Positions 35,189 through 63,938 of a DNA stretch of 64,000 nt are shown piece by piece. Origin of the DNA: Chrysomallon squamiferum (Eukaryota > Animalia > Mollusca). The stretch is taken from the NCBI GenBank assembly GCA_012295275.1, contig CM022676.1, forward strand, positions 4,154,001-4,218,000, read 5' to 3'. Every line of letters begins with the position of its first letter. Position 1 is the first letter of the stretch. The notes under the pieces are model-generated. The model had not been told where the DNA came from. It saw nothing but the letters and a program-made list of their open reading frames with translations, and did no database searches. A program made the position numbers and the translations under genes.

Positions 35189-37827
35189 GTATGTATTTTA
35201 TATTCGTCCCAAATGACAGGCTTCTCTTATAGAATAGTCTAGCATAAACAACAGAAGACACGGTTGAGCGCGTTTACTAATTACCTGCCGTTTACCTTCA
35301 ATAATATATGTAATAAATTGTGGAATAGTCTGATACAACTAAATACAGAAAATAGAACAAACTTATATAAAATCAGATTTATTCACAGATTTATTTGTAG
35401 ATTTATTAATTAAATCTACTAGATTATAATTAGACTCTCACTCTTGCTTGTATGAACAGAATGGAGCATACCATTAAATCAGTTAGGGGTGTACAAGATA
35501 CATGACCGAATAAATAGTTTTGTCTGTCAAGTGGCGTTTCTGCATTATAGGCTGTCAGTCTGTCTTTTGAGACGCAACCATTTTATTTGTACCTGATTTC
35601 AATTAATTTACAAACTCTGAAAACTTGACTGAGTCGAAGTTATGTTTCGTTGACTAATGTAGAAAAATATATATGCGTAATTGCGTGATTTGAATTTTTC
35701 AAATATATCTTTATTAAAACATGAGACAATAACAAACCATAACATAAAATAACATAACATAACAGCATGACGGTCCATAACAGAGAGTACAGTAACGTAA
35801 TGTAACATAATTATGGAATAAAGCATAAAAAAAATCAAAAAAACCCAAACAACTAAAATAACAAAAAAACGAAAATAACACAAAGAAGAATGTAATTATA
35901 AAGAAATATATTTAATTTTATTTGAATTGTTCTTTTATTATTTTAAAATTTAGGTCTGAATTACAGTTTAACAACATCAGAGAAATATGCAATTGTTGGA
36001 TCACCTTTTACTATTACCTGTCGAGGACATGCTGCTCTAATTAACTGGTTTGAGAATAACAGAAGATACAGGATGCGTGCACTAGATGAACACGGTCGCT
36101 GTTATTTTCTTAATGAACATCCAAAAGAATATTCTTTTAACTGTTCAGACGATATTAACACTGTGACAATAAAATCAGTGAAACGCAGTCAACATGGAAC
36201 AGTGTGGAGATGTGGGTTTTCTTCTGAAGAAAGCAATGAAAAAAAACTGGAAGTGAGAGGTAAAAATCAGTTTCAGTATTATCATCCTACGAAATATATA
36301 CTTTCAATGATGATAAAACAATAAACTAAATAAATCAGCAAAAATATTAGCAAAATAAATACAAATAAATAAATAAATAAATAGTAGTGACATTAGTTAT
36401 AATTATAATATTATCAGCAACAACTGAAACAGTACGGTATCATCATCACTTCGATGACAACATCCATAACTAACAATACGAACAACCCACAATTTGTACT
36501 GTCAGAAAGATTAAACAAAAATATGCAGACAATGATGATGAAGCTGCCGATTATGATGACGATGTTAATAACGTTTTATTTTTTTTTATTATTTTTTTTT
36601 TTTTTCAGACGGTCCTGGAATCTCACTCAAACTCAATACTTCGTTTGTTGTGACTGTTGTGGAAGGAAGTGACGTCACAGTGTTGTGTTCGGCGACGTGT
36701 TTCATCACGTGTAATTATCAATGGAAGCTCGCAGATGACGTCCTAAGTAACACAAACATTCTGTCATTGGCTAATGTTCAGATATCACAATCAGGTCTTT
36801 ATGTGTGCGTGGCTGAAAATCCAGATACGAAAGAAACTGCTAATGAAACACTTCGTTTGACTGTTCATAGTAAGTAATAAACTAATTAGAGTAGAAAGAA
36901 AAAATGATAAAATAAACAAACAAGTCAATATTTGTTAGACGTGTATATTTATAATATCAGAGACCCAGATATAAACATTTATTCAAGAATATCCAGATAA
37001 AATTAGACTCACTTTGTTAGGCTATAGATTGCTTTATCTATATATTTATCTGAGTGTGTTTCTGTGTCTGTGCGTCTCAGGGTGTGGGCGTGCCCGGGCG
37101 TGCCAGGGCGTGTTTAATGTATGTTTATTTTGAGTAGTATATAATAACTTAATCTCACGTTTTTATTTTCATTAATGATTTTTTAAGCCCTGTAGAAGAC
37201 AGCAGTCTGTTTGTAAAAATATTTGGCAGCGTTTTTGGAACTTTCCTTGTTCTGTCTGTTATCACAGTCTTTGTCGTTGTTCTCTATGTCCGAAACAATT
37301 GAAGTATTTCTTTGTTTGTTTGTTTGATTCCTTCTTTCTTTCTCTATTTCTTTTTATTTTATTTTCTATTCTTTATTTATTTATTCATTCATTAAGTTGA
37401 TCGTTCGTTCATTTATTCATACCTTCATACTAGTGTTTGTTTGTTCTTTTTATGTTTATTTATTTTATTATGTATTTTAATTACATATACGCATGGATAA
37501 AAGGGGAGATAAATCAAGACTACTTTACACAACTACATTACACAGAGTAATCAAACCTGTTTTCTTGACTACCTGTCTAGTTCAGCCACCTGATAAATAC
37601 TAATTCCATTTATTTTTCTCATACAGCTTAACTAAATAGTTATTTTATGTTAAAATTGTTTGTGTGTTTATATATATATATATATATATATATATGTACA
37701 TACAGACACGTCAGCACGATTATTGTTTTCTCCACACCTCACCAGTTTTATACAAACGAAAATTTCATTGCATGTTTCAGATAATCAGACTGCGCCAGCG
37801 GCTGTACAACAACATACAGAGATGTGA
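35131..37827 (+). CDS. Copy D: leader-Ig1-Ig2 receptor lacking Ig3-Ig5 and all tyrosine exons (candidate secreted/decoy form)
   Basis: Leader 35131-35188, Ig1 35954-36259 and Ig2 36609-36869 all open and phase 1; damaged TM exon 37187-37303; phase-1 terminal exon 37781-37827 (NNQTAPAAVQQHTEM*). Confidence 0.72.
35954..36259 (+). CDS. D: V-like Ig1 exon
   Basis: GSPFTITC..WFENN..C..C..VTIKSV..HGTVWRC; tttag/gtaaaa. Confidence 0.87.
36609..36869 (+). CDS. D: Ig2 exon
   Basis: DGPG..EGSDVTVLCSATCFITCNYQW..SGLYVCVAEN; ORF 36650..36877. Confidence 0.87.
37187..37303 (+). pseudogene. D: degenerate TM exon
   Basis: Acceptor cag|g became taag, shifting the AG by 1 nt; TGA at 37300-37302 in the ancestral frame. 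Confidence 0.7.

Positions 37828-63938: not shown

Follow-up and report, generated by a model that had tools for sequence, protein, structure and literature searches.

The 64,000-nucleotide (nt) stretch of the Chrysomallon squamiferum genome analysed here (assembly GCA_012295275.1, contig CM022676.1, positions 4,154,001 to 4,218,000; hereafter the window) is a cluster of duplicated, mostly broken copies, A to G, of a gene whose most complete form is predicted to encode a receptor with five immunoglobulin (Ig) domains. The window is AT-rich (30% GC), contains many microsatellites and has a paralogous match elsewhere within itself for 94% of its length. A translated search of the window identified exactly three exons encoding the membrane-distal domain (Ig1), in copies D, F and G, and G is the only unbroken copy of these three. 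We found that the differences between the three exons are concentrated in three segments of the domain, and that the tail of G carries four tandem immunoreceptor tyrosine-based activation motifs, or ITAMs. As in the original prediction, the Ig1 exons of D, F and G measure 306, 312 and 303 nt, they were located with AG/GT ends, and the nine segment motifs quoted for them are all present at the places named.

When the exons of G are joined at their splice sites, which have AG/GT ends, they form a single open frame that spans 12 exons and 672 codons, in the order V-C2-V-C2-Ig, transmembrane (TM) segment, 31-nt exon, four ITAM exons and terminal exon. A Pfam scan of G gave no fibronectin type III (Fn3) row, and the exon nearest the membrane gave a match to Ig_3 (E = 0.002). 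Another exon-like stretch, at about 59465-59530, had no in-frame placement between the TM exon and the tail and was omitted from the model. Between the Ig5 and TM exons, an acceptor-like site (about 60800-60900, minus strand) is conserved in six copies, the others lying near 5880, 18250, 23450, 41235 and 49700; splicing of Ig5 to this site would lead to an immediate stop and to a putative secreted five-Ig form. The same intron of G includes a GC-richer stretch (38%, 60091-60800), partly common to copy A and without a long open frame.

Each of the four tandem ITAM exons of G (92-105 nt) encodes the motif YxxL-x8-YxxL, which agrees with the ITAM consensus Yxx[I/L]x6-9Yxx[L/I] as given in PMC9546547 (this and the other papers cited by PMC number are used from excerpts of their text). 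A shuffled one-unit tail yields such a motif in 0.08% of shuffles (0.0008). The whole motif is contained in one exon ending in phase 1, and three of the four exons are 105-nt phase-1/phase-1 duplicates; the duplication units, of about 1.0-1.2 kb, lie at 55100-58779 (minus strand) in G and at 464-3559 (minus strand) in A. The repeated consensus of G arose by duplication of whole exons. The tail of copy A has at least four ITAM exons, with two intact ITAMs (2/4 exons agreeing with the consensus) and the first Tyr lost in two, and copies B, C, E and F have another type of tail, composed of a YxN exon and a single ITAM-type terminal exon. A stray ITAM exon copy, in which a 6-nt deletion removes the first YxxL, and a donor-site remnant also occur at about 27100-27250 and 28060-28080 (minus strand), and Ig or TM exons are absent nearby.

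Two AlphaFold models of G Ig1 (predicted local distance difference test scores 89.5 and 91.8) have the same V-set strand order, with strands at E3-7, 18-24, 30-35, 38-44, 48-50, 58-63, 66-71 and 82-86 in both, and present the nine-strand V-set fold with C' and C'' strands. Its structural matches are antibody, T-cell receptor and CD8-alpha V domains (Z 13-14), the best being CD8-alpha (Z 13.8, root-mean-square deviation 1.6 over 95 residues). Pfam gave no V-set row for Ig1 at the curated cut-off, only weak Ig_3, ig and I-set matches below it, and the domain has W-R-C in place of Y-x-C, thus departing from the canonical tyrosine corner, a V-set trait. The ESM Atlas gave clusters at 0.96, mostly molluscan where taxa are recorded, and V-set clusters at 0.92; both serve as a lead only. 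A homodimer prediction for Ig1, in which the alignment was not used, scored 0.01 and counts neither way. Strands A to G all lie in a single exon with normal splice sites, which rules out a rearranging antigen receptor, since in such receptors the V domain is split into V and J segments that are somatically joined. The B-strand Cys, C-strand Trp and F-strand Cys correspond to C22, W33 and C85 in G and D. The B-strand Cys had been thought common to all three exons, but F has a TGA stop at that position; because of this stop and three further lesions, F is a pseudogene, and we discarded the idea that the TGA is edited or recoded on account of the three additional lesions. G Ig1 and Ig3 also have a second Cys pair, C48/C62 (strands C'' and D), common to the Gigantopelta aegis relatives described below, which may pin the C'' edge beside the variable C'C'' turn.

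On these models, segment 1 corresponds to the BC loop and segment 3 to the FG loop, as the original prediction had it, whereas segment 2, assigned there to the C-C'/C'' region, covers the C' strand and the C'C'' turn and not the CC' loop; indeed, the CC' turn (E-N-N) is identical in D, F and G. The variable positions of segment 2 alternate along the C' strand, and the variable surface therefore probably extends over both tip and edge of the GFCC'C'' face, a placement that is based on the strand assignment and on this alternation. Between F and G, 16/26 codons differ in the segments and 7/73 in the framework. The low variation noted for Ig3 was borne out for this pair, with 8/103 differing codons against 23/99 in Ig1 (Fisher p = 0.003); the corresponding count for Ig2-4 is 30/274 (p = 0.004). 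After correction for the post hoc choice of the best three windows, amino-acid clustering remains significant between F and G (p = 0.012). The length differences, with D shorter by 6 nt in segment 1 and G by 9 nt, or 3+6, in segment 2, are multiples of 3 as claimed, but they amount to only two or three events and would be expected from maintenance of the reading frame alone.

A site model fitted to Ig1 without chosen segments favoured M2a over M1a (p = 0.0017), with 35% of sites at a non-synonymous to synonymous rate ratio (dN/dS, omega) of 5.1, and 14 of the 17 sites at posterior ≥0.9 fall in the three segments; applied to Ig2, the site model found no positively selected class. With one silent rate, the omega of the segments is 7-8. 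The dS between F and G is 0.08-0.09 in each of Ig1-Ig4, and dN is 0.149 in Ig1 against 0.04-0.07 in Ig2-4; since dS is equal throughout and dN is high in Ig1 alone, the decay of F is not the source of the Ig1 excess. At the base level, the segments differ at 36-47% of positions versus intron means of 11-14%. The best-three-window counts of Ig1 (32, 33 and 27) exceed those of every intron stretch of equal length (0/53, 0/29 and 0/30), these stretches being overlapping, with few of them independent.

Word-index homologue searches (Ig1; alignment A1) returned no relatives. A profile search among 1.84 billion representatives gave 111 matches at E ≤ 0.001, led by G. aegis proteins that carry automatic names, CEACAM-like or uncharacterised, and six of the seven matches in a follow-up search with one G. 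aegis protein came from that species. By sequence, the closest relatives of G are these G. aegis 'CEACAM-like' proteins. Those named 'CEACAM1/5-like' (for example XP_041379697.1, XP_041372832.1, XP_041346676.1 and XP_041373955.1) share the order signal peptide, V-C2-V-C2-Ig, TM and tail; the relatives have an Ig1 52-60% identical to that of the window, the same extra Cys pair and the same tail motif. Their tails differ from that of G in having one ITAM and not four (full-length P0002, P0014, P0129 and P0131-P0134, each with one motif of the same type). The B-F Cys pair is present in all five G. aegis Ig1 domains compared, which differ by 0.417 per column in the segments (29 columns) versus 0.163 outside (72 columns; shuffle p = 0.0004; 1/100 circular shifts); in G. 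aegis Ig3 the segment effect is not significant (p = 0.11). At the 24-25 codons that vary in G. aegis, the window copies show proportions of non-synonymous (pN) and synonymous (pS) differences of 0.22-0.36 and 0.17-0.24, respectively, and pN exceeds the intron divergence of 0.13-0.18 in all three pairs (p = 0.017, 0.0006 and 0.0012, binomial values that are too small because single intron windows match single loops). By eye, the loop motifs of P0001, P0002, P0128, P0129, P0006 and P0134 recur in varied combinations, and P0001 Ig1 is similar over its first half to the second V domain of P0002, a pattern suggestive of domain-to-domain exchange in G. aegis paralogues.

Bivalve proteins matched by the same V-domain profile (P0022, P0075 and P0108, from Mya, Ostrea and Tegillarca) end in ITAM-like motifs, and the pairing of a V domain with ITAMs may be widespread in molluscs. 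The V-domain tree is mostly unresolved (2/15 inner branches well supported) and supports no order of events. The matches of P0133 (FCRL5 9e-13, MAG 4e-10, CEA 5e-9 and CEACAM1 4e-6) rank in a way that, at the sequence level, is generic C2/I-set likeness. Lan et al. 2021 (PMC7895826) described an expanded 'CEACAM5' family, orthogroup OG0000013, with gene counts of 130 (G. aegis), 101 (Chrysomallon squamiferum), 103 (Bathymodiolus platifrons), 59 (Lottia) and 0 (both Octopus and Euprymna); four 'CEACAM5'-named genes are among those high in the symbiont-bearing oesophageal gland. The passages of that paper on 'CEACAM5' contain nothing on ITAMs or loop variation, and the literature covered, mostly outside subscription journals, does not describe loop variation or multiple ITAMs in a family of the G. 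aegis type.

The remaining copies are incomplete in several ways (Table 1). Downstream of Ig2, copy D has neither Ig3-Ig5 nor an ITAM exon; since Ig3-5 and a working TM exon are missing and its terminal exon is in frame with Ig2, D possibly encodes a secreted V-C2 protein. In copy F, Ig2 is interrupted by a stop and Ig4 is not followed by an Ig5 exon. The part of copy A upstream of Ig4 is lost at a 200-N gap (about 7310-7515), which sits at the expected place of its Ig1-Ig3, and window positions 1-7300 are 83-89% identical to 55250-62450; copy A may therefore be an unbroken gene interrupted by an assembly gap. Fragment B has a damaged Ig5 and fragment C a stop within its ITAM exon, and no Ig1-3 of fragments B, C or E was found in the window. 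The TM exons of the other window copies match the TM region of G. aegis P0133. Signal-peptide exons also occur as orphans, with no Ig1 exon after them, at 9026 (minus), 12209 (minus), about 13320-13430 (minus) and 32407 (plus); ATG and donor are lost in the one near 13400.

Table 1. Position of the features of the receptor gene cluster in the window
Feature	Position	Strand	Description
Copy A	464-7041	-	open Ig4-Ig5-TM, second tandem ITAM tail; 5' part lost at gap
Fragments B and C	16150-24610	-	Ig4-Ig5-TM, single-ITAM tail
D signal-peptide exon	35131-35188	+	open; exon model
D Ig1 exon	35954-36259	+	306 nt, open, AG/GT ends
D Ig1 variable segments	36022-36045, 36061-36099, 36214-36231	+	motif positions
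D Ig2 exon	36609-36869	+	open; exon model
D degraded TM exon	37188-37303	+	shifted acceptor, in-frame stop; exon model
D terminal exon	37781-37827	+	in frame with Ig2; model
Fragment E	40287-43290	+	frameshifted Ig4, Ig5, TM, single-ITAM tail
F signal-peptide exon	46192-46250	+	1-nt insertion (frameshift); exon model
F Ig1 exon	46568-46879	+	312 nt, AG/GT ends
F Ig1 stop (TGA)	46633-46635	+	B-strand Cys position
F Ig1 variable segments	46636-46665, 46681-46719, 46834-46851	+	motif positions
F Ig2-Ig4 exons	47215-48937	+	exon model
F Ig2 stop (TAA)	47439-47441	+	
F Ig3 exon	47732-48043	+	exon model
F Ig4 exon	48677-48937	+	exon model
F TM and single-ITAM-type tail	49896-51715	+	TM, 31-nt exon, YxN exon, terminal ITAM-like exon ending YDVQ
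G terminal coding exon	55100-55146	-	sole stop of the 672-codon model; exon model
G ITAM exon 4	55676-55780	-	105 nt; exon model
G ITAM exon 3	56718-56822	-	105 nt; exon model
G ITAM exon 2	57798-57902	-	105 nt, phase 1-1, acceptor AAG; exon model
G ITAM exon 1	58688-58779	-	YxxL-x8-YxxL; exon model
G short cytoplasmic exon	59052-59082	-	31 nt; frame-compatible model
G TM exon	59834-59950	-	exon model
G Ig5 exon	61406-61684	-	membrane-proximal Ig; exon model
G Ig4 exon	61929-62189	-	C2/I-type; exon model
G Ig3 exon	62514-62825	-	second V-like domain, 36% identical to Ig1; F-G variation small
G Ig2 exon	63080-63340	-	C2/I-type; exon model
G Ig1 exon	63636-63938	-	303 nt, open, AG/GT ends; membrane-distal V-set domain
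G segment 3	63664-63681	-	FG loop; model strands
G segment 2	63796-63825	-	C' strand with C'C'' turn, shorter by 9 nt than in D and F; model strands
G segment 1	63841-63870	-	BC loop with the end of strand B and the start of strand C; model strands

Several known receptor systems resemble this cluster in part. Vertebrate CEACAM N domains are not known to have the B-F disulfide, unlike the window Ig1, in which the B-F Cys pair is retained alongside a second pair. The vertebrate CEACAM ITAM is split by phase-0 introns (PMC5112662), whereas that of the window is whole in one phase-1 exon. Membership of the vertebrate family was rejected on the kept B-F pair and the unsplit ITAM, and P0133 matches FCRL5 and MAG better than CEACAMs. 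CEACAM3 and the paired CEACAMs nevertheless have, as does the window gene, a variable V-like domain at the N terminus whose changes fall on the CC'C''FG face, and they have in common with the cluster an ITAM tail, a YxN motif, clustered paralogues and gene conversion (PMC5112662). No partner gene with an inhibitory motif (ITIM) was seen in the window, unlike the situation of paired CEACAM receptors, and the likeness to vertebrate CEACAMs is likely convergent. Block duplication is shared with the chicken CHIR cluster (PMC1458963), and so are incomplete copies, numerous pseudogenes, possibly soluble forms and regions of hypervariability close to the ligand face; CHIRs differ in having one or two Ig domains and in being related to LILR/KIR, whereas the window receptor has a V-set tip and its own ITAMs.

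Among invertebrates, the Hydractinia Alr family (PMC9546547) likewise forms a cluster that includes pseudogenes and whose V-set receptors have a non-canonical profile and ITAM tails; its members function in allorecognition and contain an Fn3-like domain, whereas the window gene has five Ig domains and no Fn3 above threshold. Gastropod FREPs consist of Ig domain(s) and a C-terminal fibrinogen domain (PMC11999971), and a FREP identity was rejected since no fibrinogen domain occurs in the G model, which is made up of the five Ig domains, TM and tail. In the oyster (Crassostrea gigas) receptor CgIgR, five Ig domains are combined with TM and a classical ITAM; the protein binds bacteria, recruits Syk and has also been linked to ERK and to the promotion of phagocytosis (PMC6994640). 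It is the only tested molluscan example of this plan that we found. CgIgR and G thus share five Ig domains, TM and ITAM, and they differ in that CgIgR has one ITAM against four in G and is treated as a single gene; the words 'polymorph' and 'diversity' have no occurrence in the main text of the CgIgR paper (PMC6994640).

Our preferred reading, to which we give a probability of roughly 60%, is that the cluster encodes predicted five-Ig activating innate receptors in which the outer surface of Ig1 is under diversifying selection for ligand binding, G carrying four ITAMs. Birth-and-death turnover of activating innate receptors, which would function in the manner of oyster CgIgR or CEACAM3, is the best reading of the cluster as a whole. 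The case for an immune receptor is stronger than it would be from the loops alone because of the tandem ITAM tail and of the G. aegis family. In the mechanism that we propose, Ig1 would be held off the membrane by the four further Ig domains and would bind a variable ligand, most likely microbial surface molecules; clustering of receptors would lead to ITAM phosphorylation and to recruitment of a Syk-type kinase, a step we infer because it is shown by oyster CgIgR (PMC6994640), and four ITAMs could raise the signal per bound ligand. New specificities would come from duplication, from point changes and small in-frame indels, and from exchange in patches among the copies, and block duplication would leave truncated copies, pseudogenes and perhaps secreted forms, as in the chicken CHIRs (PMC1458963); copy D may act as a secreted binder.

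A number of results weigh against this reading. The signal-peptide exon of G falls beyond the window, the Ig1 comparison is made on three sequences only, one of them from a pseudogene, with pairs that are not independent, and the Ig3 contrast is a single pair (F-G) because D has no Ig3. Window-corrected amino-acid clustering is not significant for D-G (0.092) or D-F (0.32). The log-likelihood of a neutral fast-rate class (-722.6) is 1.8 log units from that of M2a (-720.8). Equal silent rates were rejected in one analysis and in 3/5 data sets of another, pS being 0.30-0.50 in the segments versus 0.02-0.06 in the framework; when the silent rate is left free, the omega of the segments falls to 1.2-2.2 and is never significantly above 1 (p = 0.23-0.74), and that of segment 3 alone is 4.2, again not significantly above 1. 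A dN/dS at or below one in the loops is thus neither found nor excluded. The proposed comparison with flanking introns holds for the overall divergence of the segments, but single intron windows equal the difference counts of single loops. In G. aegis, Ig2 (61-82% identity) and Ig1 (70-82%) are equally diverged, and the C''-C''D region and the DE loop also vary in Ig1.

These results bear on the possibility that the loops are older and not faster, conversion or unequal exchange having homogenised the framework while loop variants were kept or imported from distant paralogues. Such retention may still be selection, against homogenisation, but not site-wise dN/dS above 1. It would account for the high silent divergence of the segments, whose free silent rate is 3-6 times background, and for the F-G framework, where a single change among 48 silent sites is less than the roughly 0.12 of introns; the odd-one-out copy shifts along Ig1-intron-Ig2-intron (chi-square p = 0.0003), as exchange would cause, the FG-loop and C'' motifs of G. 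aegis occur in different combinations among paralogues (by eye), and conversion of N exons has been described for Xenopus ceacams (PMC5112662). However, the silent excess loses significance when sequences with indels are removed (p = 0.26) or when segment 3 is taken by itself (p = 0.55), the codons chosen from G. aegis have a pS near that of introns with a higher pN, and no donor tract was found in the window, the longest exact match outside Ig1 being 9-13 nt, with none ≥9 for one loop. We hold this account to be doubtful, with some real chance of being right. Three sequences do not separate site-wise positive selection from old loop variants kept under gene conversion. Relaxed constraint combined with decay, in which surface loops of Ig domains tolerate change and F (perhaps also D) is dead and drifts neutrally, has the smallest chance of the explanations considered. 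It fits the four lesions of F, the truncation or damage of D, B, C and E, the paralogous match over 94% of the window, the lack of significant clustering in both D pairs and an omega of only 1.1-1.6 for the whole Ig1 exon; yet relaxation is capped at the neutral rate, which the segments exceed when compared with introns, F Ig3 and Ig4 still have a dN of 0.04-0.06, and M1a was rejected. The intron-stretch and site-model results had already weakened it, and relaxed constraint alone is an unlikely cause.

The GFCC'C'' face is used by homophilic V-set molecules, and the alternation of variable positions on the C' strand places them on this face. The copies could accordingly be homophilic self/non-self or cell-identity molecules like Hydractinia Alr1/Alr2, in which the binding of identical copies to each other is governed by variation in the first V-set domain, and their ITAM tail would report cell contact and not microbes; the plan is Alr-like in that the first domain is V-set, each domain has its own exon, the tails bear ITAMs and the cluster is rich in pseudogenes (PMC9546547). 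Against this, the G model has no Fn3-like domain, the variation seen here is between paralogues, and CgIgR, the nearest tested molluscan protein of this plan, binds bacteria (PMC6994640); we regard the homophilic alternative as distinctly unlikely. An extension of the receptor reading, rather unlikely though less so than the homophilic one, is a germline repertoire of vent-type gastropods resembling antigen receptors, in which specificity would be set by the CDR-position loops and C' strand of Ig1 and, separately, signal strength by the number of ITAM exons (one or four, possibly alternatively spliced), with secreted decoys, and symbiont strains would be told from other bacteria. Returning to diversifying selection on Ig1, the substitution patterns make it likely, not proven. 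The site-model result, with no positively selected class in Ig2, argues for a selected binding surface and the free-rate omega does not. The selection and ligand-binding interpretation of the original prediction is partly supported; the feature it described is real, though its details were exaggerated and selection is not proven.

Vertebrates and Hydractinia are already known to have clusters of Ig receptors whose tips are hypervariable and whose tails carry ITAMs. The link to symbiosis is only circumstantial; the expanded 'CEACAM5' family, to which the window gene may belong, also counts 59 genes in Lottia. If our reading is true, this cluster would be a molluscan multigene version of such receptors, with a defined variable surface and a number of ITAMs that changes by exon duplication, and it would provide a concrete candidate for specific recognition of microbes or symbionts in molluscs.

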